This document shows, piece by piece, positions 16,001 through 64,000 of a stretch of 64,000 bases of DNA. Position numbers and translations under genes: made by a program. How positions within the stretch are numbered: the first letter of the stretch is position 1; each line of letters begins with the position of its first letter. Location of the stretch: NCBI GenBank assembly GCA_051294375.1, contig CM119265.1, forward strand, positions 11,471,818 to 11,535,817, in the 5' to 3' direction. Below the pieces are notes generated by a model. That model worked only from the letters and a program-made list of their open reading frames with translations. It made no database searches and was not told the DNA's origin. Source of the stretch: Paraspadella gotoi (lineage: Eukaryota > Animalia > Chaetognatha).

Positions 16001-19000
16001 ATATTAAAATGATAAATACAAAAATGTTTTCAGCTTGATATAAACAGTCTGGACATCTACCTTCTTGTCTGTGAAAAAAAATATGGAATTTTTCATTATC
16101 TGCAAACTAAAAGCTTGACACACTGCTTGTTTATCATAATAAAGTTTTAAAAATTATATAACTGGCAATATATTTGACAAAGCAAGACATCATTGTGTTG
16201 ATAATTTCTTTTAAATATAGCAAGGAATTTAATTCTATTATTTATCATCCATTTTAATTAAGAAAAAATATTTTCATAAATAGCCCATTAGAAAGGGTTC
16301 ATTGACTGACTTAATGATTAAATTTTTGAGATATCTTTACTGCCTCCATTTCACAAGATATAAAAGGTCATGGTTATCATGTCAGTAAGTCCAGATTATC
16401 TGTACCCTTTATACAACCTGCATTCTGAATTTTCTTTTTTTCCCTTTTAAATGTATTAAATAAAAAAATTATTTGAGAGAACAATCGGCGTGGAGGATGC
16501 CATTGGTAAACCTTAGGTACCCCACTTCCCGATCGAATTTTTAAATGAGGTTTTTTTTCCATCTGAGACATAACACTAACTATTGGTACTATTATTTTTT
16601 TTCTTTTTTTCTATTACAATTCTAGGAATAAATATGAATAAGTAACTTTTTAAAAAAATTTATCATCTTTCACCCTATATTCGGTCATATCTAAAAAACA
16701 AAAAAAGATTTTGCATTGATATTTTGGCTATTGACATAAGAAACTATAACATTTCAAAAAATAAAAAGAAATATAATAATATTGAACAGTGAATTTTTTT
16801 TATGCACGGAACAGTAACGTTACGCCATTTTTCATTGTGTCTTACCGAGACGCAAGGGCCGATTGGGCCGTTTTCGTCCACCTCGGCTTCATTTTCTTTG
16901 TACTTGAGAAAACAGAAAAGCATCCGGAAAAATCGAAACGTCTGAAAAAAAAGGAAAAAAATCTTAAATTTTAAAGTAGGGATCTCGCCAGATCTCTCTT
17001 TCTATCAAAGAAAATTAATGAAAAAATTCGGGAAAAAAAACGAATGATTGATACGATAACAAATTATTGATGTGAAAGTTATTGATTGATTGATGTAATA
17101 GTAATAGATCGAAAGATGTAATAGTAATTGATTGAATGATGTAATAGTAATTGATGATTGATGTAATAGTAATTGATTATTGAATATTGATGTAATAGTA
17201 ATTGATTATTGATGCGATGATAACCAAATGATTGATGCGATGATAACCAAATGATTGATGCGATGATAACCAAATGATTGATGTGATGATAACCAAATGA
17301 TTGATGTGATGATAACCAAATGATTGATGCGATGATAACCTAATGATTGATGCGATGATAACCAAATAATGGATGCGATGATAACCAAATGATGGATGCG
17401 ACGATAGTCATTCATAGATGCGATAATAATCATTCATCATAAATAAAAACAAACAAATGCGTGTATGAGTGAGACAGAGAGAGAGAAAGAGAAAAAAAGA
17501 TAGAGAGAAGCTGGACAGCCGCTGCAGAGCTTAACTCGTTTTTAGACGAATCAGATAGGGCTGCGCAATGCGCATCGTTCGAATCGAAGTTTCGATCAAG
17601 ATTTCTTTATATTTTACTTCTATTCAAAACTGCATAGTCAGGCACCAACAAATTATATCAATATGGGCAGATTTTGAAAGTGTGGCGTCTTGGGAAGCCA
17701 ACAGAGGTAGAGCACGATCGAAATTCCAATTTTATCATGTCCAAAAATGGTATTTAAATAAACTAGTCAGGCCGTTTTTTCTATTTTCCCAAAAAACCTG
17801 CTAGTTCTTTTGTAAAATAGAACAAATCATACATATCAGTACGGTTTCGGATAGCTTATTGTCTTCTCTACAAGATAAAAAAAAAAGTTTAAATTCTTGC
17901 AATCTTGAATGCTTGATAAAGCAATAAAATGAACTGGTTTTTTAGGTGAAAACTGCATAGTCAAGCCTTCATTTTTGGAATCGTCCGAGTAGAAATAAGT
18001 TTAAATGGAAAAAACAAAATACCTGTTTTACTAATTGATTATGCTTCTTTTTATATTAAATGTAAATAGACCTCCCAAAATTATCTCATATTTAAAAAGT
18101 TGTTGATTCTTGCAAAGTTTCTTATTCAACTTTTAGTGAAACAAGTTTGAGCAAACAATGTCGGATCTGCCAACGATCATTATCGGTTATTAAATATTTA
18201 ATAATTAATTAATAAATTCAAAATAATTAATTAATCAATTAACTTGATCCGAAATGTTTGTTTTGATTGATTAATTGACTGATTAATTATTTTTTTAATT
18301 TATACATTTTGCATTTACATTTAATATATCGTGGATTTCTTTTCTTCGTTGTGGTTGCGTATTGGAAGACGTTTTTAATGTTTTTCTACATACAAGCCTT
18401 CTTCAGCGTTAACAAACTGTTTTGTGAATTTTGAAATTATTTTTCTCCCTTTCACCATTTAATTTCTTTTCACAATCTAACTCAATCTGTCCTCATCTTC
18501 ACCTGTCCTCACATCTGACCACTATTCTTTTCTCATCTCATTGTTGGAAACTTTGCCCTCTCTCTCTATTTTTCTCTCTTTCTCTCTCTCTCTATTCACA
18601 CTTCCCTAACCACATACCAAATTTCATTCCAATCCATCCATCCAATCACAAGAAATTGGTGTTTTTTGTTAAGGTAGGATGGACGGATGGACGGACGGAC
18701 ATCATTTTTTTTGCATAATTTAACATAATTCTATGTTCTAACATGAAATAAGTTAATGCTCGACAAGATTGAGGGGGCGGACCGACGGACCGACAAAGTG
18801 AATTATAAAGTCGAGATCTGCTTATAAGCAGATCCAACTAAAATCCTAATATTGAAGAGGCTGGTTTTACAGGGCGTCACACCCGCAGCGGTGTCACCTC
18901 GTGGCGACAGCGAGACAGCATGTTTATGTAGTCAAGAGCTTTGGATCTGGTAGTAGGCCCATGCCTACAGGCGGGTTACCCGGTCCATCCCACTTTCTAC

Positions 19001-22000
19001 ATGACAACCTCAGGGCTCGAACCAGGGACGCACATTGGGATGGTGCATTAGTCCACTGAGCCACTGAGGCGCTGCGAAAGCAACAGCTTTAATCTATCTG
19101 TGGTGATAGGACCACCAGACAGCCGCCCCCAGGACTCTCACATATGAGAGTACGAAGTAGGGGGATGAAGCGCATGTCTCTCCGCTGAACCTCTCTTCAT
19201 TCTGGTGGCCTTGCTTTGAGTGGCAGCTGTGTAGGCTCAAACCACATCAAGGGCAGAGGAGTATTATCATGCCAGGGTTGTGTGTTCGTATCACGTCGGG
19301 CTCACCATTGAGGCTGGTTTTACAGGGTGCCACACCCGCAGCGGTGTCACCTCGTGGCGACAGCGAGACAGCATGTTCATGTAGTCCAGAGCTTTGGATC
19401 TGGCAGTAGGCCCATGCCTACAGGCGGGTTACCAGGTCCATCCCACTTTCTTCATGACAACCTCAGGGCTCGAACCAGGGACGCACATTGGGATGGTGCA
19501 TTAGTCCACTGAGCCACTGAGGCGCTGCGAAAGCAACAGCTTTAATCTATCTGTGGTGATAGGACCACCAGAATATTACCATAAAAAAATTTATGGATTT
19601 TCATCGCCACTTTACGTGGCGCACCACTTCCGGTTTAAGCTTTAATTTCAGGCCCTCATCGGCGTTTTAAAATTTGTAAAATTATTTTGTAAAAATTTTG
19701 TGCAAAAGAAGAGGGAGAGAGGATAGTAAGAGAGGGAGAGAGAAAGAGAGTGTAAAGGTTTTCCAACACAGAGTTGAGAAAAAGATAGTGGCCTGAGGTG
19801 ATGAGAGGCTGATGTTAAAATATTTTAATATTTTCTATGCCAGCGCGAAATCGAACGTTTGTAGTTTGAAATTTCGCCCGAAACTAATTGCTTAACATGA
19901 GTTCATGAGAGAAAAGTCATTTATTTAAGAAAAATTCCTCAGAAACTCGTAAAGACAGAGTTTCCTCCGGGCGAAACACATTCAATGAGTTTTAAAACGA
20001 AACTATCTTCATATCAAAAATCTCTCTCGGAATACGAGCCTATGAAAAATATGAGGGACCGAAAAACAGACCTTAGAATTGGCCAAACGACCATAAAAAG
20101 AGAGGCAAGGCGTGACATCTTTATCAGATAGATATAGTAAATTTTGAAAAGAAGTGAAAAAAGGTAAGCGAGAGAGCAGGTGATTAACTAATATATTTAT
20201 GCAATAGAGAGAAGGAAAATGAAATTTTAAAAATACATTAGTGAAGGATGGCTAAGTGATACACAATCAAGGGGGGCCAGCTTATTTTAAGCTCTATCCT
20301 ATTTCTTAAACTTTCCCTTTTTCATGCACTTAGCTATCCCTCTCATATGTTTTTCGGGTCGGGGGGTGGTCAGCCTACGCGCAGCCCTGTGAGGATTTTT
20401 TCAGTGATTTTTTAAAACAAATTCTTAAATTATATATTTTTTAATATTTATCAAATATTTTTTTATAATATTGATTAAATATTTTTTTAAATATTTTCTT
20501 TAGATGCTGGACAGTAAAAAACTACCTCATATTTATAGCTCCAGAGCTTTTATAATGCAGTAATCAGTATTTTTAAAATTATCTACTTACCTTGTTCATA
20601 TTACTTTTTGAATTTATTTAATAATAAATTATTGAATAAATAGCAACCATTTTGTTCTGGCTTAATAATTCAATCGCTCACAATTTCAAATAATACAATT
20701 TAAATATGAAATTAATTAGCATATTTTTATCAATTTTTATTTGTTTATTTCTTTATATTAATTAATACACTTATTTTATACAAATTAAAATTAAAATAAT
20801 TTATATCTATTTAAAATATTTTTTATATAATTTTTTTAATAAAATTTATTTTAAAATAAAAAAAATTATCTAAAAATTATAAAAGTGAGAAATGAGGACT
20901 CTATGGTGGATTAAAATCCACCAACCGTTCATCAGCGGCCATTGGTGCCGGAGGCAAGTCATTCGCCTCCCAACCCAAAGGTCCGGGGTTCTAGCCCGGT
21001 GGCCGCCTAGCAGTTAAGAGGGACGGGGCGCTTAACCCGCCTGTAACACTCATTTAAATTAAATGTTTTACAAATAAAAATTGAATTCAAAGTATAGTAT
21101 CATAATGGTAAGAACTTATCTTTAATATTGTTATCTCAGAAATACATTTAATAACACAGTTCCGCACAATATGTAAATGTAGGAGTACCATTGGGACACA
21201 CTGTAGTAAAACAGCGAGATGACGACGACGACGACAACAACGCTACGGTCAAAGAAGCAGAAACGAATTCATAATCTCGCCCAAGTCGGGCTTTCGCCCG
21301 TCTTGCGAGATAAAAAAAATACAGTAAAAGGATTCGAGAATAATTAATTATTTCGACTTAATTGTTAATTGTTACCTGCGCAGACGATGGATTCAACCGG
21401 AGGCTTCGACGATAGTGACTCATTGCACCTGTGAAATTCCCGTTTAAAGATCTGAAAAGTATTATTATATAACGGTGATTAACGGTGATCTCGCACTGAC
21501 TCAACGCGCTCAGAACTTACTTAAGATTCCCCAGCAGGAAATGGGTTAGGGCTTCGGATTCGTCGTACTTTAGAGCGACCTCTGCGACGGCTTGTGCAGA
21601 TTCCAGGTGACCCTAAGTGACAAAGTGGGACATTCTGGGTCATCTTAACCGAAAGAACATTTATTGCTTTTCAAACTCATTTGTCGCACCCTTCGATGAA
21701 GAAGCGAAGCCAGCGCCACAAGAGGGACGTCGCGGAAACGCGCCGGAGTCCTTCGCGCGGCTTTGACGACACAAACGTGGGCGTTGAAGGCGGAACCGGT
21801 TACGCGCCAGTAGGCAGAAGCCGCCATGAGGGCGATCCAGCGCCGAGAGCCTGAAGCGTCGGAGAGGGATCGATGAAGGGGCGACGCCATGCGCTGAACT
21901 GAGTCGGCGGCGCACGGAGGGTCGCAAAGACGGACGAGGACTTGGAGGAGACCGGGTTCTTCCAAGAAGGGCACGATTACTTTGTCCCTTTTAGAAGGGA

Positions 22001-39449: not shown

Positions 39450-42400
39450 TTAAATAGACCTCGTCGTCGTCGGTAGCAAGTGGGCGTCTAAAATGACGCC
39501 CTTTAGTTGGGGAGGCGTCATGGGTGTTGTGACGAGCGCCTCCAGGACGTTAGAAATCGGGGAAGAAGCAATTAAAAGTAAGGTGGAAGAGTCCTTCAAC
39601 GAAATCGCCGGCAAAAGATTCACGTGGGACACCGTCGACGACGCAACGACGACGGGCGACAGAGTTGGAGCTGGTACCTCAGTTGGACAAGCGCCACTTG
39701 GACTAACGAGCCTCGGGTCCGGGGGCGAAATGACGAACGGCGCCGTGGCGACGACGCCGTTGGTCTTGAAATGAGTTTGACTGTGATCCTCCAAGGCTTT
39801 TCGATCGATGGTACGGAATTGGCAGGGCTTACCCGACGACGCCGACCTCCACGAACAGCCGAAGACGACGTGGCAGGCGAGACCCTCGGTTCGGATGCGG
39901 GCGACAAGCGACTGGAGGCGCGCCTCCGACGACGCTCGAGTCGATCGACAATCGAAGTCGATGGCAGCGCTGAGGATGTCGTTGGTAAGAGAGAAGTCGT
40001 ACGAGTCGCTCGACGCGTGTCGCCACATGTGGGACTTGAGATGGAAAGAGAAAACATTAACTAATTCGAATTTTATTTCTCCCAGTTTTTTGCTAACTTG
40101 TTTTTAAAAGCGACTAAAATACAAATTGAAAAAAGCGCTTACTCCTGACGTTAAATTTGACAAAAAAAATTTCGCAATTTTTAAATATTTCGAAAAATAA
40201 TTACAGAAGGCTTTATGGCAACAGCCGGTTGCCTGTGATATCCATTGGGATGAGGCATCTCACTGTTGGCTTTGGGGGCTTCCGACCCTCAGTGACGCCT
40301 CAGTCACTGGCGCGGTTACAACGCAGAGGGAAGTCGTGAGGACTGTGGATGGAACACAACGCTTGGGATGGTGTGTTCCCCCTCTGAGCCAATGGGATTG
40401 TCTAAACAATGATGGACTTGACGAGGTGAATAATAGGGTGGAGTGATGAAAAGATTGAGCGATGGAACAATATTTTTTTGCTGCCTTTGTATACGTAATA
40501 AAAAATAATTAAACCTTTTTTCAAAAAAAATTTGCATAACAATATCATTAATTGAATTTTCTTTATAGTAATATCCTTATAAAATCATAAAATTTCAAAA
40601 TCATATTTTCTTAATTTTAAAAACAGTTTTGGATTCGCGGGAAAAAACTGAAAAACTTTTGTAAAATATGTTACATGATATTTTTAGGTTAAAGCTGCGA
40701 AAAATGATTTAAAAGTTTCATCATATAATAGTTTCTACTACAAAGTGTAAAAAAGTAGAGAATTTGACCTTTTTTTTCCATTTTTGACGCTGAAGACATT
40801 AAAATTTTTAATAACATATTTTATATTTTTGATCTAACTTTTTATGAAGAATCAGAATCTTTAACAAAAATTTTTAAAAAAATTATTTTGAAAATTTATG
40901 ATTTTATAAGAATATTACTATAAATATATTGTAATTAATGATACTGTTCCCAAAACAATATAAGCAAAATATTTTTTGTACTCCTTAATCATACTATCTA
41001 ACGTTTAAATATACTTGTTTGATCACTCTAATAAAATTTATGTTCCCCAGTGCTCCACTCTAGTGAATAATGAATATACCGCCACATATATAAAATGTAC
41101 CCCTTTTTTGTGACCAGAATCTGTTCCCACTACCCGATCGAATTTTATGAAATTTTACATACAGAGTCCTCATGACAATATAAATGGAACTATCGAGGCG
41201 AATTTTGATATTTAACCCCTGACAAGAGATAAAGGGCCCTGGGGGGCCAAAAAGGCTAAAAATTTTGTGTTTAATATTTTTTGGTAGCATCAGATGCATT
41301 GACGTCTTAAACATCATTGACGTCAAAAAAACATTATAAATTAATTATTCATTACTTACTTAAAATTATTGAAATTCATTTATACATTAAATGAAGCATT
41401 AACAGGGAATCCTTATGATATAAAATTATTATTCAAGACAGTCAACAATATGCCCAGGACAACATTTTTTCTAATTGGACGAATTACACAAAGAAAACTT
41501 AAGATTTACAAATAAAAAAAATCATTATTCAAAAATTTATTAACATTACTATAATTCAGATACGCCATTGATTATATCATTAATAGGTATTTCTTAGGAT
41601 GTAAAATTTTTTTTTAAATGCAATCACGAATACACCTAAAATGGTCTTTTTGTTAGATAAAAAATTAAACAGAATAGTAAATGAATTAAACACGAAATGT
41701 AACTTATATATAGAAAATGTCCAGTATTTCTCTCACTAATGATATACTTATGAATTACATATATTAAATATTTAAGGTATAGTAAAGATTTTTTTGGTGT
41801 CACTCGCGAACGGACAAGGGGTAGTACAAGACTGTTCATAAACAACTATTCAAATTTTGATCTGCAACTTTCACTACACCTTACTTCTCAGGGTACGCTA
41901 CGAAAAATGCCTATGCCCTGCCGACTTCAGGTACGCTACAACAAACGCCTATACCCCTGTGGTACACTACAACAAACATCTATGCCCCACAACTCGAGCT
42001 CGCTCTCTCTCTCCCACTATGGTAACAGTCTTGTCTGACACCTCTCAGGCTTGAGGAACCTGAGTGATGTCTTGGCCCGGGGATCCCGTGGCGGTATATT
42101 CAGTTATTCACACCACCTCACGTCCACAATCGTTCAGCCAATAACATTGGCTCAGAGGGGGAACGCACCATCCCAGGCGTTGCATTCCATCCACAGTCCT
42201 AACAACTTCCCTCTGCGTTGGCAAAGCGAGACTGTCCTAGGGTAACCGCGTGTCGGAAGCCCTCAAAGCCAACAGTGAGATGCCCCATCGGCCATCAATC
42301 CCAATGGGCATCACAGGCAACCCGGCTGTTGCCATAGTACGAGGCATTCTGTAAATAGATAAAAACGAAACTAAAATTAAGCAAAAAGCAAAGGTTTTTA

Positions 42401-45400
42401 AATTAGAATAATGATCTAGGTGTGGCGAATTTTAAATTCGCCTACCGTATAGCTTGGTAAAACTCAGCTCGTCCCATTGGCTTGGACTCGTTCACCAAAC
42501 GTGAGTTCTGTGTTAAATACCCTCACGGTCACGCTGGTTAAGTGTGATGGTGTCGCCATAAACACGCCAGTGACAAGGGGTGGTCACTAAGGTGGATTGA
42601 TGAGCGAATTAAGAATTGACTGTCGTATTTTCTTATACTTTGATAAGTGCTGATTAAGAAAATTCATTAAAAAAATTTAGAAAATTTAAGAAACGCATTT
42701 TTTATAATATAAATTATTGGTGTAAATACGATCTCTGATTTGAGAATCCGATGCTCCGATCGAAAAATTCAGACAAAATGAAATCTCCTTTCTCCGCGAG
42801 AACTGATCAACCAATCAGAGCGCGGCATTTCGCGTCACGAATGTTCTCTTAAATTCTCCGGCGGTCAAGCGAACAGCTGAGATCTTCCACGGAAGGTTTT
42901 TTTAATTTTTAGTTTTGACGAGATTTGGTAGTTGTTATTAATAATATTAGACGAAAATAAAGATAAAGAATTGATAAATAACACATTTAAACATTTTAAT
43001 AAATTGTAATTACTTTCTCTTTGCATTCATAAAAGACTAAAGTGTGTAGAGTTAAAGATTTTACTTCGTTTTTCAGTCTTTTAAATAATTTAGCAATTCT
43101 AAATGAATGATCATTGTACATACTTATATTTAACTTAGAAAGATCCCAAGATTCATTTTTACATCTATCTCAAATATTTAATGTATTGTTTAAAAAATAT
43201 TAAAAGGGGAAATAAATCTATTCCTCTCAACAGTTAATTTTTAGCCAATGGAAGATTGGTTTAACGGTTAAAACCAAAGGACGTTGGGCCAAAAATGTTT
43301 CTTTGTGCTTTTTGCTTTAACACCAATATTATTTTCAGATTTTTCAATTCTAAAGTCATATAATCTTTACAATAAAAATCCATAATTTTCTTTAATCAAA
43401 CACATTTTTCCCCCAAATCGCCTACTTTCTCTTTACTTCTCTTCTCTCAACCTAATTTCATCCAAACAGCGACAATGCTCTTAGGTCGTAGGTGTGGTTC
43501 TTCTCGGTGAAGGAAGGAAGGCCTGGGGGAGGGTTTTGTTTTGATTCATTTGATTTATTATGCTCATAATGAGGAAGGGGCTCGGAGAGAGACAGAGAGG
43601 GCCCAGGGCTTGGCGACGGATAGGTGTAGGGTTGGAAACGGTTGACGAGGTCGCCAACCAATGAGAAAGCTTTATTCATTGCTTTTTTATCACAAGTTGC
43701 CCTGAGGAAAGGTGGTCGATTCTCACTATTTTTGTAACTTTAAGGAAACTCTCCCACCTTTGTGATAATACTGTCAGATCAATCAACTTTTTGGTGCTAA
43801 ATGTCAATGCTGCACAAAATACCTATGTAACCTCTTTTCTTATATACTCTTTTACAAGGCTGTGTATAGGACGAAAATATGAGAAAATAAAGGTAGGAAA
43901 AAAGGTGAGGGATTGGGATGATGTAATAGAAGTGGAAAAGAAGTGAGACGAGCTTCCTCCTGATCCACTTTTATCAACGCCCGGTCTCATCGGCCCTCTT
44001 AATCTGTCTGGTCAATCGAAGGTCATTGCCAAAGCTAGGGAAAAGTGACCGTGGTGATTGACCGGCACAGAGAAAGAGGTGAGAGGAAGGGTTTAGAGAG
44101 AGAAAGATCGATCGTAAGTCACTTCAGCTGGTACTATTATTAACATAATTTATGAATGTTATTACTTTCTTAAATTATTATAAATTACTAGCTGAACTTT
44201 ATAACAATAAAAATCTGCCATTTTTTTAAAAGAAAAAACCGAATGAGTTTGTGAAAAGCTTTGAGCACATTGTAGTTCAGGTCAATGCAGACAGACCTGC
44301 AAAGCAACTTTGCAATTTTGTCTGCTGCTATTGATATTTTGACGCTGTTAATTTTTTTTGGTTTTAATTTAAGAAGTAGCAATTTAGATTTTAAGTCAGT
44401 CTAATTTTAAGCTTTGAACGAAAACTGATTACCAAAAAGTCTTGACTGCATAAAGCGTAATTTAAGCAAACTTTATCATTAAGAATTTCACTGAATTCTA
44501 AAGTTTTTTTCAAAATTTAAAAAAAAATTTTGATTGTGAAAGAAATAAAGGATATATCGTTAGTCAGGAGATAGTATAACGAGTATAACGTGGATAAAAG
44601 GTAGTATAACCACAGAGAAAGAGTGAGAAATATAAAATGAAAAAGAGAAAATTTAACCATGATGTGAAAAGGCCATCATTGATTACTGGTGAAGCTTCAA
44701 TTGCGGTAGAATCATGATTCAAAGGAATTAAAAACCTTGAATGATTTTCTGGTCTTAATTTTCTGTCACCAAGCTGAATTTTGTCCCACAACAAGTTTCT
44801 GGTTCTTTCTTGAACGCCAAAATTTAATTTTTACCAAAAAAAATATAATTTAAAATATTGTAATGTTATTAAAGAAATATGTGTAAGGTATAAGAAAAAT
44901 CGACAGTCAAAGGCTTCTGTCAAAAAATAAAGGTTTCAAGTCCACCTCAGTGGTCACTAAGGCGTAGTAAAATTTTTAAGTTTAACTTTAATTAAAAATC
45001 TAAAAGTGGGGAACGAACAACATTATACTTATGAACATTTATGTAATAAAACAAGTTTGAGCAAACAATGTCGGATCTGCCTACGATAATTAATTAATTG
45101 ATTAATTAATTAATTTAAATATGTAATAATTAATTTTAAATTTATATTCAACTTATCATCATCGATGTCCTTAAAATTGGGTTAGGACAGTTATTAAATA
45201 TGTTTTGTTTACATTTTATCAAAAACAAATATCCTCTATTTTATTTTATGTTCTCTTCTCTCTCTCTCTCTCTCTCTCTTTTTAGGCAATTGTGACGATC
45301 TTTATGCTTTTAAGATTTTTTTAACTTGCATCATTTTTTCACATTAATTAATTAATTAAAACATTTATTAGTAATCATTAATATTAAAGATTCAAGTAAA

Positions 45401-52088: not shown

Positions 52089-53291
52089 GCTTAGTCATCC
52101 TTAGTAAAATTAGAGAGATGGGGACACCTCAGGCGTCATGACGACCTTATGTACCAGAGTCAGTCTGAATTTCTTTATAAATGGATAAAAACAAAATTAG
52201 TTAAGATATTTTTTAATCGAATTCTAGCGCAACTGTTCATGTCTGATATTTTTTGCATTTTTGTTTTCATTATGTTTGTAGTAGGGAGACTACCGCGGAC
52301 TGCGGTTTACTGAACAGGACGCGTTTAATTGGTGATTGGAATGTAGAAAAAGTGCACAAATGACTAGCGTAGGTCGCAGAAAACACAAAAACTTTAGTAA
52401 AGATACTCGAAACATAAAAATGCTCATGAAGGGCGATTTAAAACTTAAAATAATGGCAGATCGGCTTTCTTCGGCGTAATAAGATATTTCCCAATGACAA
52501 GAGCTAAAAGTTGTATAGTGCATGTAACAGAAAAAGCATTTAAAAATTGAAAAATACCGAGGACAGAGGTCCGAGGTAAACACGAAAGGCTAGTCTAAAA
52601 ATGATTTTAATTAGATTGCTCCAAGGACACTTTTGCATTGTAATTTTTGCGAGTTAAAAATTTTACCATAATGTGCAGATCATTTTTATCTAATATCAAA
52701 GATTGGTAACAAAATAAGTCGGGCAAGGCCTTGGGCGAACATCAAGCAATTTTTGGTTTCTGCTGTTTTCCAATGTTAGAAAATAAAAAAAAGGATTCCA
52801 GACTATTTAATCAGGGGAATAATTAATAATTATGCAACAATAAGGCAACAAAACTCAGCTAGAGATTAGTAGTGAAAAAGCGTAAGTAAAATAAAGATTC
52901 GACGAGGGTGACGTAAACTAATTAAAAATCCGTATAAATTTTAAAACAAATCTCAAGATACAAATGTTTTTAATGACTGAAAATTAACAAGATAAAAAAA
53001 AGAAAAGCATTATTATTTTTAAAGAAGATAAAAAATAATTACAATAATATTAATAATAATACAACGAAAAATACGTTTTTTAACAATTCCAATTTCATTG
53101 TGCTTATTGATTAACCAAAATAGCTAAATTCTAACGGGATTTTCCAGTAAAATTAAATTAAAATTAAATCTAAGCAGACGGAATAATTTCTCCGCATCTT
53201 AAAATCATCAGCAAAGAATTACCCTCCCCCCCCCCGACCCCTCCTCTCTTGACAGAAACAGAAGGGTTGTGGTTGTAGTTATAGTTGCGGT

Positions 53292-56201
53292 TCATGGATC
53301 GGACTTGGAGGGCAGCGCCGCCTCCGCCTCCATTCCCCTCTCGACGTAACTGGAGCCGGATGCGCCTCCGTTTGCGGCGCCGGAAAAATCGTCGGCCGAC
53401 TGCGAGGGCCTCATGGAATTGGATACTTGACGCTTGAGCGATCCCCAGGTGCTGCCGACTGAGGCGCCCAAGGATTGAAAGGAGGGCGAGTTTCGCATCT
53501 CGCCCAACTTTCCCCGCAGGCTGGTTCCCGCGGTGGAAAGGGCCTCGCCCGTCTTTTGGCCCGCCGTCTTTAAGGTGGTCGAGGTTTTGACGTAGGCTTC
53601 CGACTCTTGGATGGTCTTGAGGGTGGTGTTGAGGTCGGACTTAATTTCGTCCAAATGGGTGATGCCCAGGCTTCGCTTCAGGTCGTTGGCGCGACGGAGT
53701 TTTGCTTGCAAAACCTATTAAGGTAAGAAAAAATGAAAGGCAGGAGGCATGAGAAAAAAGATGCCGCAACTTCCGTCAGCCAAATCCTTTCACCTGCCGC
53801 AGGGTGCGAATTTCATCGTCGACCTTGGCTAGCTCCTGTTCTAACTCCGCCTTCTCCTCCGGCGTTGGCACTGGCTGCGCGCCGTTCGTCAAATCGTCAG
53901 CGGATCCTCCTGGGGCGCTGCCTCCAGAGAATCCGCTGTCGGCTGAAGGACTCGCGCCTTGTTTTAAAAAAAAAATAATTTATTGTGGCGGTATATTCAC
54001 ACCGCCTCACGTCCACCGTCTTTCAAGCCCAAAATCCATTGGCACAGAGGGGAACACACCATCCCAAGCATAGTGTTCCATCCACAGTCCTAACGACTTC
54101 CTCTGCGTTGGCAAAGCGAGACCGGTCCTAGGGTAAACCGCGCCAGTGGACTGGAGGCGTCACTGAGGGTCGGAAGCCCCAAAGCCAACAGTGAGATGCC
54201 CCATCCCAATGGGCATCACAGGCACCCGGCTGTTGCCATAAGTGGTGAGCCCTACTATCGAACACGCCAACCTTCTCGAGGTACGCTACGACAAACGCCT
54301 ATGCCCTTCCGACTTCGGGTACGCTACGACAAACGCCTATGCCCCTGGGGTACGCTACAACAAACGCCTATGGCCCACAACTTGTTGCTCTTCTCTCTCT
54401 CCCACTATGGTAACAGTTTGTCAGACACATCTCAGGCTTGAGGAACCTGAGTGATGTCTTGGCCCGGGGATCCTGTGGCGTATATTCACACCGCCTCACG
54501 TCCACAGTTTTCAGCCAAATCCATTGGCTCAGAGGGGGAACACACATCCCAAGCGTAGTGTTTCATCCACAGTCCTAACGACTTCCCTCTGCGTTGCAAA
54601 GCGAGACCGTCCAGGGTAACCGCGCCAGTGACTGGAGGCGTCACTGAGGGTCGGAAGCCCCCAAGCCAACAGTGAGATGCCCCTCCCCAATGGCATCACA
54701 GGCAACCCGGCTGTTGCCATATTATATTATATTCAAAACTTAGAAAATCCGTTTCACTTCTTTTTTTTACTTTATGACGCATTGTGTGTATTAAAATAAA
54801 AAATTTGAATTGAAGATACTAAACCAGACCATGTCCTAGCCTATCAATATTTTGGTTAAAAGTCATATGGGTGCCCCCCTTTAAAACGCCCTACTTAGCA
54901 AAGTTAAAAAGAATTTGATATGGATAATATAAATCCGGAAAATCCTTCTGTCAAAAATTAAAATGTTGCTGCTGAAGAAGACGAAAATAATAATAATAAA
55001 AGTGAGGAGAAGGTGAAGAATTGTGACGATGTAAGAGAAGTAGAAAAGAAGTGAGACGAGCTCTCTCCTGATCCACTTTTATCATCGCCCGGACCAACTT
55101 GACCTTACGGTCGCCTCGGCCCTATTACTGTGTCCGGTCAATCTAAGGTCATTGCCAAAGCTAGGGCAAAGTGACCGTGTGGAATAGACCGGCTCGAAGA
55201 AAGAGGAGAGAGGAAGGGTTTAGAGAGAGAGACCGGTGGTAAGTCGCCTCACTGCATCTGAAATCTTCATTTTTTTCAGCTGTAAACAATAAAGCCCTTT
55301 GTTACAGCCATACATATTAAATTCAAGGGTATTGCCTATTCATAAATGTCAAGAAATGGAATCTCAGTACTCTATAGTAGACTGCAGCAATGGTTTTTAA
55401 CACAGTAGCAAAAATACAAAGAAATATTTTTTTTTATTTGATGCTGCAGTATATTGCATTATGCTATTAACTTGATATTTTATACATAGAGTCCCAACTA
55501 TATTAGTTATTTTTTTCCAAGCTTACAGTGTGAACTTTTAAAAAAATATTTTTTACAGCATCTTAAAATTCTTTTAATAATCAAGGATAGAAATAACTTC
55601 TCAAACTGCTGCAGCTTAATGGCCATAGGGTAATAAGATAACATGTCCCATAAATATTTCTAAATTGAGTTCTTCATTTGCTCTCTTTAGAATTTTCCTT
55701 TTAGCATATAAAGGTGCTTCCAGCACATATATTTTTGGTTTTGGACATGCTACAATTGTTGCTTACAGCACCCTTATATATGGCTCTAATCGACTGGGCT
55801 TTTTCTTAATAAACTTCTTAATTATATAACATAATACTAGAAAATGTTAACATATTTTAGTAGTGGTTTTATGCTGAAATCCGGCGGTGTAACAAATTCA
55901 ACCAACGTTTCATACTTTTCGGTACCGTTGAGTATTGTTCGAGTATGAAAAAAATAAAACCTATATCAGAGAGAGAAAACATCATTGATTATTTTGATGT
56001 ATTATAAAATAAAATTAAATAATTTTTTGCCATTGAAATCTAATGGTAAATTTTATTCTAAGTTTTGATTCACTACCCTGTATTCTTAACATTAGCGACG
56101 AATCTTAAAATCAAACCTGCTCCGCCGTAGAGGCTTCCCGCGACGACGCCGAAAGTTCCCGCGCTAGAGTCATCGTCCGCCGGTAATGAAGCCGACATCA
56201 T
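53292..56201 (-). CDS. TPD52: Tumor protein D52 family protein (3 exons)
   Basis: Exons 56201-56117, 53957-53794 and 53714-53292 are in phase. ELEQELAKVDDEIRTLRQVLQAK...LKRSLGI, AGQKTGEALS and EMRNSPSFQS are D52-family motifs. The symbol denotes the family, not a specific paralogue. Confidence 0.92.
54107..54189 (+). ncRNA. Twister ribozyme, type P5 (5' LTR copy, family B)
   Basis: P5 GUUGGC/GCCAAC encloses GCGA GA CCG (G)UCCUAGGG U^AA(A) CCGC GCC P3 GAGG GUCGGAAGC CCC. A few single-base insertions, possibly sequencing errors. Confidence 0.75.
54593..54670 (+). ncRNA. Twister ribozyme, type P5 (3' LTR copy, family B)
   Basis: GCGA GA CCG UCCAGGG U^AA CCGC GCC AGUGAC-UGGAGGC-GUCACU G AGG GUCGGAAGC CCC. 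T1 is CCG:CGG. Predicted cut between 54617 and 54618. Confidence 0.8.
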
Positions 56202-57247: not shown

Positions 57248-60200
57248 TCACGAAAAATAACTCTGAAGGTTCTCTCCCAAATGCTCTTCCATAGCATTAA
57301 TGAATCGCTGCACAGCTTTTTCCACCTCCTCGTCTTCGTCCTCCATCAGCTCGGCCAAAAACGGCGCCACTTCCGGCAGAAGAGTCAGGAACTCTTGCTT
57401 AACCTCGATGGCAAACGTTTGAAGGGCGGTGACCGCTCCTAGCCTCGCGGCAACATTTTCGCTCTTGGTCTTGAGGCAGATAGAGTAAGCGATCTTCTTC
57501 CACATCCCCATGTCGTCTAAGGCAGCGGTAAAGGCGGCGAGACAAGGCGCTAAGCGGGATGACACGAAAGCAGCGTGGCCTGCAACATCGCATAGCAGCG
57601 TCTCGTTGTCTAAGTGATGGATCAACGGCTCGCGAAGAGCGTCGAAATTCTCCTTAGCCACTGCGCCTAGTTTGTCGTGACGGAAAACTACGGTGAGCGT
57701 ATCGACGACCAGTTCTAGGAGCCTAACGTTTTTGCGGCGATCGGAGAAGACTTGAATCGAAGCGGCGGCCTCCAGGTCCTTGGAGGGTGAATCGTCAACG
57801 CCGACCGGGATCGTCGACGTAGGCGCCATCCGATTCACTAACAAAATTTCAATGACGTTCTTTGCCACGCGGCCGAAAAAGAGCGCGAAGAGAGACTTGA
57901 GACTCGAAGTGATCTTCAACGACACCGAGTAAAATGTGAGGATTCTGTCTTGAAAGGGCGCCGCGTCTTCCGTGGCCCAGTCGAACAAGCGATAGTAAAA
58001 TGGTCGAAAGGTGGCCTCCGACATCCGGAGCACCATGGCCAGCGAGGCGTCGATGATGGAAGCCTCGATCTCACTTACCCGCGGCTCTTCAATCGTGTCG
58101 AGCGACTTGGCCCGAAAGTCTAGCGCCATGATAAAAAAGTCGCTTAAGTCAGGCAAAGAACCGAGAAAATCCTCTTTCGATAACCCATCGATGTGCTGGC
58201 GCAAGAGGTCCATGGAAGCGACTATTGCACTCATGTAGCCACGCTCCAGCAAAGTTCGGTAGCTCTTGGTGGCGGTCGGTACCATAGTGCGCGGCGGCGT
58301 TTTGGCGTGCAAGATTTCCCGAATCTTCGCCAGACGCAGAGTCAATTGCGCTTTATAAGATCCGTCACCGATCGAAGATTCCTCGGCGGAAACGAGGGAC
58401 ACGGCGACGACAATGTCTGCCAGAAACGGAGACAGAAATTGAGGAAGGGTTTCGAGGATCTTGCCGAGAGCCGTCAGGGCGGACACGAGCAACAGATCGT
58501 TGGAATATTTGGCCGGGGCAGACTTTGGGTTCGTCGTTTCGGCGATGATGCGCGGCACGACAAGATTGAGAAGAGGAACCGTCTTCGCCTTCAGGCTGCA
58601 GAACAATTCTGCAAGAGTGAGGAACACCGAAGACCGGACGACGGCATCCATTGAGTCGCCCGGCTGTAGTAGCAAAGTAACGCGCTTAACGATGGGCAAA
58701 AAGGCATTCGGATGAGCGAAGCCAAAAATGCGAGAAAGAAGTTTGATACACAGTAGCGCCGCCTGCGTCGTGTGAGGAGAAAAAGGAGGAAGCTTTTGAG
58801 CATCGTCCTCGTCTTCGGTCAGAACGAAACGCATCAACACTGGAAGAAGATTCAACCAGGCATCCTCGTTTCCCTCAGTGTCAGATCCACCGATATTTTC
58901 CGCTTTGATATAACGCGCCAATCGCGCGGCCAGAAGATCCAACCCTTTTCTCCGGACGTTATGCGACTGGTGATCGAGAAGTTTGAAGACGACGACGAGG
59001 AAGTCGGACTCTTGAAGCGATTCGTTAACGGCATCCATGGCCTCGGTCGACTTTGACATCATTCCTTTCCAAAAGCGCGCCGCAGGGGCGTCGCTCTCGT
59101 CCTCGGAGCGCTCGCCGGCTAGCAGCAAGAAATCCACGAGCGAAGCCACGAGAGAGTACAACTTTCCTGCCACGTCCCGCCTGCTCGTCTCATCGAGTCT
59201 TGAGTCGCCGAGAAACGCGGCGAGGAGTTGATTGATAAAGAGAGAGACGCTGAAGAGGAGCAGACGAATTTGACGAGCGGAAAGGAGATGAAGGTTGAGA
59301 AAGTTAAAAGGATGAGAGGACGATTGATCGGAAGATTCACGCGACGCCGAGCGGATGAAATGCGGTGGAAAACTAGTCAAGAAAGAAATCAAACGTTGCA
59401 GAGTCTCGATGACGACCACGAATCCGAAGTCGCGGCAAAGATGAATCCAAAATTTAAAAAACTCTTGAAGCTTCTGCACTTCGCTTTTGGGAATATCTAG
59501 ATATCTTTCGTGAACAGAATCAGGACGATCCCTGTGCGAGACCGGGGCTGAGGGCTGAACGTGAGATTCCAAAACGATGGCGATCAAACACCAGAGGGAA
59601 GATTCTGGTCCCATTCGATCTATGAGATGTTTAAAAACCAAAGTCCTACGGTGGGCAGGCATGTGAAAGAAAGCTTCGACAAAGACGCGCAGCGCATGCG
59701 CGACGTTTTCGTTGATGCGCTCAATATGGTTGGAGGAACCGATTTCCATCGGTTTTTCGTCGATGCTATTGCTGGCGAGCAGGACGGGAGTAATGGAGTC
59801 GAGAGTCTGCTCCAGGATTTGCATCGTGAAGTTGTTGTCTTGACGAAGCAGATGTTCTCCAACGAAGGTGAAGATGGTCACGATGTTTGGGACGACCAAG
59901 CGGGGCGCGACCTCGGCGGCGGCGTTGATGAGGTAAAACGCGTTGCGATTGCTCTGCGCCGTCGCCGTCGGTGATTGAACGCAACGAACGATAACGTCAA
60001 TATTGAGTCGTTTGTCGTTGACGATAGAATTTAAAGCCTCTGGATCTTTGGCGCGAAGTCTAGAGACGACGCTTCCGAGCGCCGCCAGGCAGTGATCCCT
60101 AGTGAAGAAGAGACAAGAATCGTCATTGCCCAGACAGTAAGAGATAATCTTTAACAAAGAGGGGACCAGATGTTCCGTTTCCTTTATTTTATTTAGATTC

Positions 60201-60949
60201 GACTGGAGGTAATCGAGGATTTTTTCAACTCTTCCTCGGAAGGAAGCGTTTAGATCTTTCTCTTCAACTTGAGTCTTTCTCCGCTTCGTCTCCTTAACCG
60301 AAGCGAAGCTTTCCTTCATGGGAATCGTCCGACTTAATTCTGCAGAAACGAGGGCCGCGTCGATGGTCAGACGTGATAAAACTTCTTTGGACTTTGAAGC
60401 GAAGTCGATTTTGTTTGTAGCATTTGGTGACGTCATCACCGAGTCTTTTCCGACCTCTTCGACGACCTCGACGCAAATGGCGTCGATGAGAAAAGAAAAG
60501 AAGGCGGTGCGCGTCGCCGTTGGCAGCGAAGAGAACCATCGATCGTCGACGACCGAGAGTTCGGCGTATTCCTCGACCGCATCGACGAACTCACGATATT
60601 CGAGACAATCGGAAGTTAATAGCGGCGCCACCGACGCCGTGGCAAAGCGACGAAGCAACAGCAACGCCGTCTCGTCTTCTTCCTGGTCGTGGCCAACTTC
60701 ACGCCTACGCTTGGTCAGCCGCGTCAATGTCGCCGTCAATGGCCGAAAGACGGCCTCTCCTTCGACCTCGGAAAGCAAGAGCGCCAATTTTCTCGTCATC
60801 GTGGGGTCGTAGCTCGGATCCCCTATGCAAGCGACCATGTCTTGCAGCAGGGTGGAATTCGTCTTTGTTAAAAAAGAGAAAATCTGAGGCAGTTGGTGAG
60901 GATCGATGACGATTGCGTCACTTCGTTCGACGATGGCTTTGACAAGATT
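57248..60949 (-). CDS. HEATR1: HEAT repeat-containing protein 1 / U3 snoRNA-associated protein 10, terminal exon
   Basis: The open frame extends to an acceptor at 60950. Motifs IFTFVGEHLLRQDNNF, HMPAHRR, BP28CT-type MSEATFRPFYYRLFDWA and LLPEVAPFLAELMEDEDEEVE...LGENLQSYF. Upstream exons lie outside the window. Confidence 0.96.
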   Translation of the reverse strand, partial: NLVKAIVERSDAIVIDPHQLPQIFSFLTKTNSTLLQDMVACIGDPSYDPTMTRKLALLLSEVEGEAVFRPLTATLTRLTKRRREVGHDQEEDETALLLLRRFATASVAPLLTSDCLEYREFVDAVEEYAELSVVDDRWFSSLPTATRTAFFSFLIDAICVEVVEEVGKDSVMTSPNATNKIDFASKSKEVLSRLTIDAALVSAELSRTIPMKESFASVKETKRRKTQVEEKDLNASFRGRVEKILDYLQSNLNKIKETEHLVPSLLKIISYCLGNDDSCLFFTRDHCLAALGSVVSRLRAKDPEALNSIVNDKRLNIDVIVRCVQSPTATAQSNRNAFYLINAAAEVAPRLVVPNIVTIFTFVGEHLLRQDNNFTMQILEQTLDSITPVLLASNSIDEKPMEIGSSNHIERINENVAHALRVFVEAFFHMPAHRRTLVFKHLIDRMGPESSLWCLIAIVLESHVQPSAPVSHRDRPDSVHERYLDIPKSEVQKLQEFFKFWIHLCRDFGFVVVIETLQRLISFLTSFPPHFIRSASRESSDQSSSHPFNFLNLHLLSARQIRLLLFSVSLFINQLLAAFLGDSRLDETSRRDVAGKLYSLVASLVDFLLLAGERSEDESDAPAARFWKGMMSKSTEAMDAVNESLQESDFLVVVFKLLDHQSHNVRRKGLDLLAARLARYIKAENIGGSDTEGNEDAWLNLLPVLMRFVLTEDEDDAQKLPPFSPHTTQAALLCIKLLSRIFGFAHPNAFLPIVKRVTLLLQPGDSMDAVVRSSVFLTLAELFCSLKAKTVPLLNLVVPRIIAETTNPKSAPAKYSNDLLLVSALTALGKILETLPQFLSPFLADIVVAVSLVSAEESSIGDGSYKAQLTLRLAKIREILHAKTPPRTMVPTATKSYRTLLERGYMSAIVASMDLLRQHIDGLSKEDFLGSLPDLSDFFIMALDFRAKSLDTIEEPRVSEIEASIIDASLAMVLRMSEATFRPFYYRLFDWATEDAAPFQDRILTFYSVSLKITSSLKSLFALFFGRVAKNVIEILLVNRMAPTSTIPVGVDDSPSKDLEAAASIQVFSDRRKNVRLLELVVDTLTVVFRHDKLGAVAKENFDALREPLIHHLDNETLLCDVAGHAAFVSSRLAPCLAAFTAALDDMGMWKKIAYSICLKTKSENVAARLGAVTALQTFAIEVKQEFLTLLPEVAPFLAELMEDEDEEVEKAVQRFINAMEEHLGENLQSYFS

Positions 60950-61026: not shown

Positions 61027-64000
61027 CATGGTGACAATTTTACAAGCGCCGTAGAATGACGCTGTCATTTGCAAACCAGTGGTTATTTCATTGATTTTAA
61101 AAATTAGTTGAGTAGAACATTAAAGTCATTTATGTGTTCAAATTTTATATTGATCAGTTAAGATATGCCTTGGCAATTAGTGGAGAAAGTTGGCTTGTAA
61201 AATCGGGTTTCATTTTCTAACTACTTTTTTAGATTCAATTTTTTTTTCTTACTTTCAGTAAGTGTTCTGAAGAAATTTAAAATAAAATAATAATAATATT
61301 ATTATCTTCTGAAAGCCCTTTCAAATCTAAGAGAATGACATACTTGCAAATACTGTAGTATAAAATTTAACCGGCCAGCTTTAATTTAAATAGGATACTC
61401 AAAAACAGAACATCTTCTAAAAATCAATAGCTGGAGAGTAAATTATAGATTTTTATCAAATTGTGATTGGCTATCTGAAATCTCCTTTTTTCAGGCTCTT
61501 TCATGATACTTATATAAATAATAATATTTTATTGTTATAATAATTTAATCAGGTCATATATTTTAAAACAAGTTTGAGCAAACAATGTCGGATCTGCCTA
61601 CAATAATTAATTATTAATTAATCGATTAATTAATTAATTAATTTTAATATGTAATATATTAATTTTAAATTTATATTCAACTTATCATCATCGATGTCCT
61701 TAAAATTGGGTTAGGACAGTTATTAAATATGTTTTGTTTACATTTTATCAAAACAAACAAATATCCTCTATTTTATTTTATGTCTCCTTCTCTCTCTCTC
61801 TCACTCTCTCTCTCTCTCTCTCTTTTTATATGCAATTGCGACGATCTTTAGCTTTTAAGATTCTTTTAACTTGCATCATTTTTTCACATTAATTAATTAA
61901 TTAATTAATTCAAACATTTATTAGTAATCATTAATATTAAAGATTCAAGTAAATGTGACTTATGTTTTTTCCATCTAAACTCATTTCCACTGGCACAATT
62001 CGTCAAAACTTTATATATATTATATAATTAATAAATATTTAAAAGCTTCAGTGCAACAACCCAATGAACTAATTCAAAAAGTTCACATTGAAAATCGATT
62101 TAGTAGTAAAAGGAAAAAAAAAATTTTAAAGAGAACTAGAAGTTATAAAAAATGTTCAATTTTGGCCCGCCTTACTAGATATATTGCATGTGATAAACAT
62201 GTTATCGGAATAATAATTTTATCAATTTTATGTATTTGTATTTTAAGTATTTTTATTTTTATTTTAATTTTTTTATTTGCTAATTTTAATCTCGGACTCT
62301 CTTTCTCTCTCTCTCTTTGCAATTGCAACGATCCTTATGCTCATTTTTCTGCTCTCTCTCTCACATTTTTCTACCCCCACACAAAAAATTTGAACTCAAT
62401 CTATCCATCCAATTATGATTAATTAGAGTACTTATTGGTTAAAATAAGTAAACATATTTTAGTAAATGCGACTTATGTTTTTTCCACTTAAACTCATTTC
62501 CACTCACACGATTCCGTCGAAACTTTATATCCAGCTTTATCACACACTTTCCTACCCACATACAAAATTTCAATTTCAGCCAATCACAAGTTATTGGAGC
62601 TTTTTGCTAAGGTGGAACGGATGGACGGATTGATTGACTGATTAATTAATTATTTATTAATTAATTGACTAATTGATTAATTAACTGATTAATTATATGA
62701 TTTATTAATACATCCTGCATTTACATTTAATATAAAAATAAAAAAAGCATAATTAATTAGTGAAACAGGTTTTTTGTTTTTTTCCATTTAAACTCATTTC
62801 CACTCAAAAGATTCCATCGAGACTTGGTTTCCTGTTCAATCACACACTTTTCTACTCACATACAAAATTCCACATTAAGTGGTAAGTGCAGAACTTGATC
62901 AACTTGCAGAATTTTGTCAACTGGCATATTTGGTCAACTTGGCATAATTTGGTCAACTGGCATATTTTGTCAATTTGCATAATTTGGTCAATCAATCAAT
63001 CAATCAATCAATCAGAGAGAGTAGAGAGAGAGAGAAACATTTAAAAAATTCAAATAAATGTGTCTTTTGGTTTTCTAATTTGAACTCTTTTCCACTCCTA
63101 CGATTCCATCTAAAAATTTATATCCAGCTTTATCACATACTTTCCTACCCACACACAAAATTCAATTTCGATTTATCTATCCAATTTTAATAAACATTAT
63201 AATTATGAGTAAATATGACTTTTGTTTTTTCCATTTTAACTCATTTCCACTCGCACACGATTCCATCGAAACTTTAATATCCAGCTCAATCACACACTTT
63301 CCTACCATCATACAAAATTTCAAGTCAATTGCCCTATCCACTCATGAGCAATTGGCGTTCAAATAGTGAAATATATTTTTTGTTGTTTTTCTATTTAAAC
63401 CAATTTCCACTTGCATGATTCCATTGAAACTTCATATCCATCTCAATCACACAGTTTCCTACCCACACACAAAATTTCATACCAATCCAATCCATCCAAT
63501 CACGAGTAATTGGAGATTTTTGCTAAGGTGGGACGGACGCACGGAGGGACATCGTTTTTTTTTGCATAATTAATCATAATTCGATGTTCTGACATGATAT
63601 AAGTGTGTGCCCGACAATATTGAGGGGGCGGACCGACGGACCGACAAAGTGAATTATAGAGTCGGGATCTGCTGATAAGCAGATCCGACTAAAAAGATTT
63701 AAAATTTTAGATAATTAACTTTTGACTCTCTTTATTGAACCAAGGCTGGGCAGCTTAATTTTTATGTTAGAGCTTTCGTAAGTATATCATTCTCTTCATT
63801 TTTTTAAGGGGTTTCTGAGGATATTAATATTGTTAATATATTAATAAATACTTTGTTTAAAAAAGTTATAAAAGTTAAAAAAAAAAGATTTAAAAACAGT
63901 GAGTTGGAAAATGAAACCCGATTTTACAAGCCAACTTTCTCCACTCATTTCCAAGGCATATCTTAACTGATCAATATAAAATTTGAACACATAAATGACT
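61027..64000. mobile_element. Second copy of the Tc1/mariner-type element, in the HEATR1 intron
   Basis: TA followed by the CATGGTGACAATTTTACAAG left TIR; the right TIR begins near 63890. Confidence 0.75.
61566..63694 (-). mobile_element. HINE family 1, full-length copy
   Basis: Minus strand begins TTTTAGTCGGATCTGC..GCAGATCCCGACTCTATAA, has a GTCC microsatellite and ends GCAGATCCGAC..TTTGCTCAAACTTGTT. This is DINE-1/HINE architecture. Confidence 0.75.

Follow-up and report, generated by a model that had tools for sequence, protein, structure and literature searches.

Short self-complementary linkers in place of stem P1 in predicted twister ribozymes of miniature LTR elements from the chaetognath Paraspadella gotoi

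How might a twister ribozyme cut when its stem P1 has shrunk to a few nucleotides (nt), by itself or with a partner? The question is raised by a 64,000-nt stretch of the genome of the chaetognath Paraspadella gotoi (assembly GCA_051294375.1, contig CM119265.1, positions 11,471,818 to 11,535,817; hereafter the window), in which a small element with two long terminal repeats (LTRs) bears a predicted twister core in each LTR. At positions 54126-54133 (+), inside the 5′ LTR of this element, the window reads TCCTAGGG. These letters are preceded by GACCG and an extra base, G54125, which is private to this LTR copy and missing from its sister copies, and they are followed by T54134/A54135 (UAA...), the predicted cleavage step. 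The initial annotation of this DNA had described the eight letters as a self-complementary linker replacing P1 between the T1 strand and the cleavage site, and had proposed that the ribozymes of the two LTRs pair through it, so that only two-LTR transcripts are cut. The replacement of P1 is confirmed here, both at 54126-54133 and in all four families of such LTRs in the window (hereafter families A, B, C and D). As for its function, we tentatively favour an 8-nt stand-in for P1 in a ribozyme that would be able to cut in cis and could optionally pair with a second copy. This possibility ranks first, and cleavage that depends on, or is strongly promoted by, a dimer ranks second.

The element around this site, of family B, has direct repeats bounded by TG and CA, the word TGGTGAGCCC after the first repeat and a non-coding interior, and is therefore a miniature non-autonomous LTR-type element. 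It measures approximately 735 base pairs (bp), with LTRs of approximately 250 bp each and an interior of approximately 233 bp. The 5′ LTR (53986..54242, +) starts with TG and ends with CA plus TA, and the 3′ LTR (54476..54722, +) repeats it directly, with 91.5% identity. A stretch resembling a primer-binding site (PBS), which begins with TGGTGAGCCC, follows at 54243..54268 (+) and is common to families A and B: the ten letters TGGTGAGCCC stand 2-4 nt past the 5′ LTR in both elements, which are otherwise unrelated. The whole PBS-like stretch (TGGTGAGCCC...CGAACAC...) spans approximately 26-30 nt at 19307-19282 (-) and at 54243-54268 (+), as compared to 18 nt for a usual PBS. In our reading, it would pair with the 3′ half of a tRNA, CCA included. 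The purine tracts are weak, and the TTAT repeats flanking the family B element sit in AT-rich DNA.

Do these LTRs hold complete twister ribozymes? In both LTRs of families A and B, the segments follow one another in the order P5a, AAA, P2′, L1′ (GANNG), linker, UAA, P2, GC, P3, P4, L4 (nUCnnAAGC) and P5b. The ends of the cores lie in P5, and the cores therefore belong to the type-P5 (circularly permuted) twisters, a class reportedly described by Roth et al. in 2014. In the family B 5′ LTR, the core at 54107..54189 (+), with the predicted cut at U54134/A54135, parses into P5a GUUGGC, AAA, P2′ GCGA, L1′ GACCG, the linker (G)UCCUAGGG, UAAA, P2 CCGC, GC, P3 CAGUGGAC-UGGAGGC-GUCACUG, P4 GG/CC, L4 GUCGGAAGC and P5b GCCAAC. 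The core of the 3′ LTR lies at 54593..54670 (+), with the linker UCCAGGG at 54610-54616 and the predicted cut at U54617/A54618, 483 nt past the first. The family A cores are on the reverse strand: that of the 3′ LTR at 18925..19003 (-) has the linker ACCGGG at 18979-18984 and the predicted cut at U18978/A18977, and that of the 5′ LTR at 19378..19456 (-) has ACCUGG at 19432-19437 and the predicted cut at U19431/A19430, 453 nt ahead of the other. The family A parse runs P5a CAUGUAG, AAA, P2′ GUGG, L1′ GAUGG, linker ACCGGG, UAA, P2 CCC, GC, P3 CUGUAGGC-AUGG-GCCUACUA, P4 CCAG(A), L4 AUCCAAAGC, P4 UCUUG and P5b CUACAUA.

The published layout of the Schistosoma mansoni twister, as set out in Table 1 of PMC8501958, is UAA, P2, GC, P3, P4, GUCCCAAGC, P4, GUAAA, P2, GAGGG and P1. 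Measured against that table, the conserved loop letters (GC of L2, nUCnnAAGC of L4, AAA before P2′ and the GA start of L1′) are complete in four of the four LTR copies of families A and B. A UAA(A) word with its U-A cleavage step stands beside P2 at 54134, 54617, 18978 (-), 19431 (-), 21033 and 42559, the last two in the partial cores of families C and D. The T1 pseudoknot between L4 and L1′ is CCA/UGG in family A and CGG/CCG in family B, as compared to CCC/GGG in the Schistosoma table; all of these pairs are Watson-Crick, and the differences between the families are changes on both sides and hence compensatory. The T2 pseudoknot, between the GC of L4 and the GC of L2, is GC/GC in both families. 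Moreover, P2 (3-4 bp) covaries, with CCC/GGG in families A and C (with a bulged base), ACAC/GUGU in family D and CGC/GCG in family B. P5 comprises 6-7 bp, P4 comprises 4-5 bp in family A, and the P3 stems of family A have no sequence relation to those of families B and D.

Other parses of these LTRs were rejected. A family B parse with P4 as GUCGG/CCAAC was dropped, as L4 = GUCGGAAGC fits the published 9-mer and gives a complementary T1. CAUCCCAA(G/U) hairpin loops, considered as L4, either lack the GC of T2 or stand in the wrong segment order; these loops, which resemble the L4 word, occur twice in the family B LTR (54060-54069 and 54202-54210, +) and once in the family A LTR (approximately 19033-19025, -). 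A hammerhead reading of CUGAGGG...GGAAG failed because the core letters do not fit.

A descriptor composed only of the published conserved twister letters and T1 complementarity matched exactly the four LTR copies of families A and B in the window, and it matched nothing in 400 64-kb sequences (200 simulated windows and 200 of LTR composition). Rfam, searched over the whole window at the gathering score, returned no twister, hammerhead or tRNA match; it overlooks the twisters of these two families chiefly for want of a P1. In a metagenome pattern scan, none of the 117 loci listed had twister features and one had only an L4-like word, and two scans of viral contigs gave 3 and 6 loci, none of them twister-like by eye; the matches of all three scans were chance ones. 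Folding energies of the whole core do not separate the models of cleavage: the nested twister fold lies 3-12 kcal/mol above the minimum free energy, and the gain of 7-8 kcal/mol for cofolded dimers is unspecific. We conclude from the sequence that families A and B carry complete, albeit predicted, twister folds.

What stands in the place of P1? The linker was defined objectively, as whatever lies between the five-letter L1′ (GANNG) and the U/A cleavage step. It reads ACCGGG in the 3′ LTR and ACCUGG in the 5′ LTR of family A (-); UCCUAGGG at 54126-54133 and 42235-42242 and UCCAGGG at 54610-54616 (3′ LTR) in family B (+); GGCGCT, or GGCGCU as RNA, at 21027-21032 (+) in family C; and TGTCGCCA in DNA, or UGUCGCCA as RNA, at 42551-42558 (+) in family D. 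The strings quoted in the initial annotation are all present at the cores of the families to which it had assigned them. In each of the four families, P1 is thus replaced by 6-8 nt with no hairpin-competent stem. Around a tetraloop, 6 nt leave room for no more than one closing pair and 8 nt for no more than two, which rules out a normal P1 and bears out the earlier remark that the linkers are too short for a stable hairpin.

The linkers can pair with copies of themselves. In UCCUAGGG at 54126..54133 (+), all four centred positions pair (three Watson-Crick and one G-U), and the centred pairing amounts to 2/3 in family A, 4/4 in B, 3/3 in C and 3/4 in D. The cofold energies of the linker homodimers are -8.1 (A), -11.0 (B), -8.3 (C) and -1.5 (D) kcal/mol. 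As compared to random sets of the same lengths (N=20000), the four family linkers give P=0.0016 for the summed homodimer energy, P=0.00045 for centred pairs and P=0.02 for the Watson-Crick run. Three of the four families have a perfectly palindromic central tetramer (CCGG, CUAG or GCGC; P=0.001); among all the tetramers in these LTRs, 3.9% are palindromic. The P3 and L4 loops of these ribozymes, taken as controls, show no self-pairing, except for L4 of family B at -2.7 kcal/mol. The self-complementarity of the linker exceeds chance and is real, as judged on the same four families on which the idea of palindromy was formed, with no independent test set.

The per-family values are P=0.023 (A), 0.020 (B), 0.021 (C) and 0.62 (D), so that family D contributes nothing, and when the worst copy of each family is used, P rises to 0.057. 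Each of the two complete elements also has an LTR in which the palindrome is interrupted, with ACCUGG in family A and UCCAGGG in family B. Between families A and C, two of 12 positions of L2′-P2′-L1′ upstream of the linker differ and none of 13 after it, while five of six differ within the linker. Both linkers are palindromic nonetheless, which looks like selection for pairing.

How does the linker vary among genomic copies? Contigs of four public sequencing runs (here X1, X4, X9 and X10) were aligned to 53950-54760, with 6232, 6628, 451 and 2 records, respectively; X1 and X4 are DNA runs that come from a single study, possibly with the source sample among them, and all depths are those of contigs rather than of raw reads. 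A T inserted at 54612, in the 3′ LTR copy that has no central U, accounts for 82958 of 112668 (X1), 117972 of 176891 (X4) and 6445 of 13108 (X9) of the summed contig depth. Therefore, the UCCUAGGG form predominates, and the form without the U, at 26-33% of the summed depth in X1 and X4, is frequent. Minor variants also break the palindrome: TCCG stands in for TCCT (depth 364.6 as compared to 5682.7 in X4), and, at a low local depth, the share of A>C at 54130 and that of G>A at 54133 are each 4-37%. None of the minor variants is compensatory; the linker variants lie mostly in dead copies, and they thus neither prove nor exclude selection. Family B is abundant, with thousands of related contigs in the DNA runs, and 2013 of the 6232 X1 records are at least 99% alike. 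Contig joints that go back 482 were discarded as a signal, as they only reflect the two LTR copies in the reference stretch.

The reading that we place first, albeit tentatively, is that each LTR ribozyme would cut in cis between U and A (U54134/A54135 in the family B 5′ LTR), with no need for a partner. The linker of 6-8 nt would most likely act as a simple closing loop, because published work shows that P1 of twister can be spared: PMC5408937 calls it “dispensable” and reports an “almost wild-type rate” without it, and, among the natural type-P1 twisters tested in PMC11662667, cleavage did not depend on how long, stable or intact P1 was. A loop of this size should be long enough to bridge the two strands of the missing helix. 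Furthermore, the 5′ ribozyme would be transcribed approximately 480 nt ahead of its partner, by which time a fast twister would already have cut. The palindromy could be what is left of a P1 hairpin that has collapsed, or a means of rebuilding the P1 helix between two copies by domain swapping; such a swap may aid cleavage and is probably not obligatory. A transcript across both LTRs would be cut twice, after U54134 and U54617 in family B or after U19431 and U18978 (-) in family A, provided that it starts upstream of the 5′ ribozyme. This double cut would release an RNA of 483 nt (B) or 453 nt (A) with 5′-OH and cyclic-phosphate ends; by analogy with retrozymes, a cellular RNA ligase would probably join these ends into a circle.

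Several observations weigh against cleavage in cis as the primary mode. The published P1 deletions concern an open-ended P1 (type P1 or two-strand constructs) and not a permuted ribozyme with a short closed loop. Fast cleavage in cis would also threaten the circular product, which the ribozyme would cut again. Not one of the four families has kept a normal P1 hairpin, and a plain loop leaves unexplained both the excess of self-complementarity over random linkers and the perfect palindromic tetramers, as well as the fact that the divergent linkers of families A and C are both palindromic. P4 of family B has only 2 bp. Finally, Rfam gave no twister, hammerhead or tRNA even at E<=10 on 53000-55500, 18700-19700, 18900-19040 and 54100-54195 (the cores being 141 and 96 nt).

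Does cleavage then require two ribozymes? We regard this alternative as rather unlikely. The antiparallel linkers of two copies would form a P1 helix of 6-8 bp, and each core would be domain-swapped, uniting a 5′ half and a 3′ half that belong to different copies; a two-LTR or multimeric transcript would then be needed for efficient cleavage, and one-ribozyme circles and solo LTRs would stay uncut. By our reasoning, this geometry would work: at each end of the linker duplex, L1′ would be joined to the U/A step of the opposite copy, and the swapped helices would all be nested in a two-LTR chain, which makes the topology allowed. Linker palindromy beyond chance, control loops that are not self-complementary, 6-mers that are unable to form a hairpin stem and the duplex energies of families A, B and C all point in this direction, as do the lack of a normal P1 hairpin in any family and the restriction of the published P1-deletion data to open-ended P1. 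Such gating would shield the circular RNA from re-cleavage, and dimeric hammerheads provide a precedent with the same linker shape (PMC7229834 and PMC6765202). On the other hand, the reported dispensability of P1 (PMC5408937 and PMC11662667) implies that its loss alone does not inactivate a monomer. Neither complete element has an intact palindrome in both of its LTRs, the family D linker gains only -1.5 kcal/mol, the U-less form of family B is common, co-transcriptional folding would favour the cis fold, and the whole-core cofold gain is not specific to dimers. The step in the initial annotation from the absence of P1 to inactive monomers, with cleavage of two-LTR transcripts only, is not supported. 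The prospect that these are the first twisters built as a domain-swapped pair, in an animal LTR-type “twister retrozyme” whose two-ribozyme transcript would be cut and whose one-ribozyme circular RNA would be spared, is likewise rather unlikely.

Cleavage may also have little to do with the palindrome, or may have ceased. That the ribozymes are decayed relics that no longer cut, with the palindromy a leftover or an accident of four short GC-rich strings, appears improbable to us. The missing Rfam match, the value of P=0.057 with the worst copies and the modest likeness of the family B LTRs would fit decay, and part of the core is lost in four of the eight LTR copies and fragments in the window. 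Against this, four copies retain all of the conserved twister positions, with compensatory T1 changes, family B is represented by very many records, a large number of them nearly identical, and the palindromy has P of approximately 0.001. More improbable still is a palindromic loop that serves as an RNA dimerisation site apart from catalysis, for example for co-packaging in the particle of an autonomous LTR retrotransposon. Retroviral dimer-initiation loops are palindromes of 6 nt; the palindromy statistics of the linkers would suit such a role, and LTR-type elements with a PBS-like site would rely on the particle of a partner. Nevertheless, no autonomous partner was found in the window (the Pfam scan covered 7 of the 17 open reading frames (ORFs) of at least 130 amino acids), nothing links the site to packaging, and the palindrome always stands exactly at the P1 position, which points to a role related to the ribozyme. 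Cis cleavage with optional pairing therefore remains our first choice.

The window holds eight LTR copies and fragments. The family A element (18857..19572, -) has two LTRs of 263 bp that are 97.3% identical, an interior of 190 bp and the PBS-like TGGTGAGCCC... at 19307-19282. Its LTRs (18857-19119 as compared to 19310-19572) differ at seven positions, of which five belong to P5a, the linker, P3, P4 and P5b of the 79-nt ribozyme core (binomial P=0.029). A tRNA-like block lies upstream of the ribozyme in this LTR, at 19070-19009 (-) and again at approximately 19523-19462 (-), with an acceptor-like stem CCUCAG/CUGAGG and two words, TGGCTCAGTGG and GGTTCGAGCCC, that we take to resemble box A and box B, respectively; the block may serve as an internal promoter of the RNA polymerase III type. 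ARAGORN found 0 tRNAs, and Rfam likewise gave no tRNA, the tRNA-like block of family A included.

The remaining copies are incomplete. The partial core of family C (21018..21046, +) comprises P2′ GAGG, L1′ GACGG, the linker GGCGCU, UAA, CCC, GC and the start of P3, and belongs to a truncated LTR (approximately 20900-21046), which AT-rich DNA breaks off after the P3 start. That of family D (42537..42590, +) comprises P2′ GUGU, L1′ GAUGG, the linker UGUCGCCA, UAA, ACAC, GC and the P3 hairpin, in a degenerate LTR (approximately 42440-42600) with no recognisable P4 or L4 after P3. A family B copy truncated at its 5′ side (41884..42339, +) retains the linker UCCUAGGG at 42235-42242 and has lost P3 and the start of P4, and a solo family B LTR (40213..40430, -) has a deletion from P5a through the linker, that is, of the whole 5′ half of the ribozyme. 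The internal deletions of these two damaged copies thus hit different parts of the ribozyme.

The host genome is AT-rich, and ORFs resembling HEATR1 and TPD52 lie near the family B element. An uninterrupted ORF of 1196 amino acids with HEATR1/BP28CT domains (57248-60838, -) is a host gene, as is the TPD52-family ORF at 53292-53711 (-), immediately upstream of the element. In the Pfam scan of 7 of the 17 ORFs, only host genes were found. The window also contains other repeats. Direct repeats at 24775-25245 and 26622-27064, rich in GA/AG runs, are 89-94% alike and approximately 1.8 kb apart; no ribozyme motif was seen in them, and they are possibly another small terminal-repeat element. A direct repeat of 103 bp at 31849-31951 and 34233-34335 is 97% identical with a spacing of 2384 bp, and a tandem array at 17182-17434 has approximately 10 copies of a 23-bp unit. 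Dispersed repeats of approximately 150-300 bp (1227-1542, 18587-18696, 45386-46927 and 61939-63550) have the conserved word CATTTAAACTCATTTCCACTC in common, in many cases with GGACGG repeats after it, and are probably a family like short interspersed elements (SINEs) or miniature inverted-repeat transposable elements (MITEs).

How do these elements compare with known systems? Twister is among the most widespread self-cleaving RNAs, and its biological roles are largely open. The cores resemble the type-P5 twisters in segment order, in ending in P5, in the UAA step, in the GC of L2 and the AAGC end of L4 (T2), in a T1 of 3 bp, in AAA before P2′ and in the optional P3; they differ from them in a P1 of 6-8 self-complementary nt, in an animal retroelement as host and in the lack of an Rfam score. 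Circular permutations of twister are themselves described in PMC5408937.

In overall layout, the elements resemble the plant LTR retrozymes (PMC4918200, PMC9695139 and PMC7229834). Like these, the elements are non-coding and approximately 700 bp long, with two ribozyme-bearing LTRs, a PBS-like site and a unit-length RNA predicted between the two cuts; unlike these, they carry a twister rather than a type-III hammerhead, and live in an animal. The type-III hammerhead of LTR retrozymes is absent from the Rfam matches here, the motif being twister-like, and metazoan retrozymes lack LTRs and a PBS according to PMC7229834. Among animal retroelements, the twister variants of Schistosoma mansoni Perere-3 (RTE) in PMC8501958 have very similar conserved loops and P3 start (GC-CUGUAG...), and a P1 that is weak or partly supplied by the flank. 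Those twisters differ in being type P1, at the 5′ end of a long interspersed element (LINE) and one per element. The only twisters mentioned in a 2020 review (PMC7761336) are truncated ones at the 5′ ends of RTE elements, and our literature search found no paper on twisters in LTRs or on twisters acting as dimers. Small animal LTR elements with a PBS-like site and one twister per LTR are thus a layout that we have not found in print.

Penelope-like elements and amphibian retrozymes carry minimal type-I hammerheads that cut as dimers (PMC6765202 and PMC7229834). These are similar in that their core-side helix has 0-2 pairs around a palindromic tetramer, and, as in our elements, they sit in repeated retroelement ends with two copies per transcript. 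The appeal of the initial annotation to minimal hammerheads that cut as dimers is sound in this respect. The class of ribozyme is another, however, and helix III of the hammerhead is essential, whereas P1 of twister is reported as dispensable; because of this difference, the analogy fails at its key step. If the palindrome did replace P1 as a dimer device, it would be a second, independent case of a double ribozyme beside the hammerheads of Penelope-like elements and newt satellites, and such a double twister would offer a direct way to study how circular RNAs with a ribozyme escape self-cleavage. If these ribozymes simply cut in cis, the advance would be a modest extension. Their cores would then be a natural counterpart of the mini-twister (Kosutic et al. 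2015, as described in PMC5408937 and cited in PMC11662667), which likewise has a core without a P1 helix. Unlike that engineered, open-ended construct, the copies described here are natural and have their strands joined by a short closed loop.

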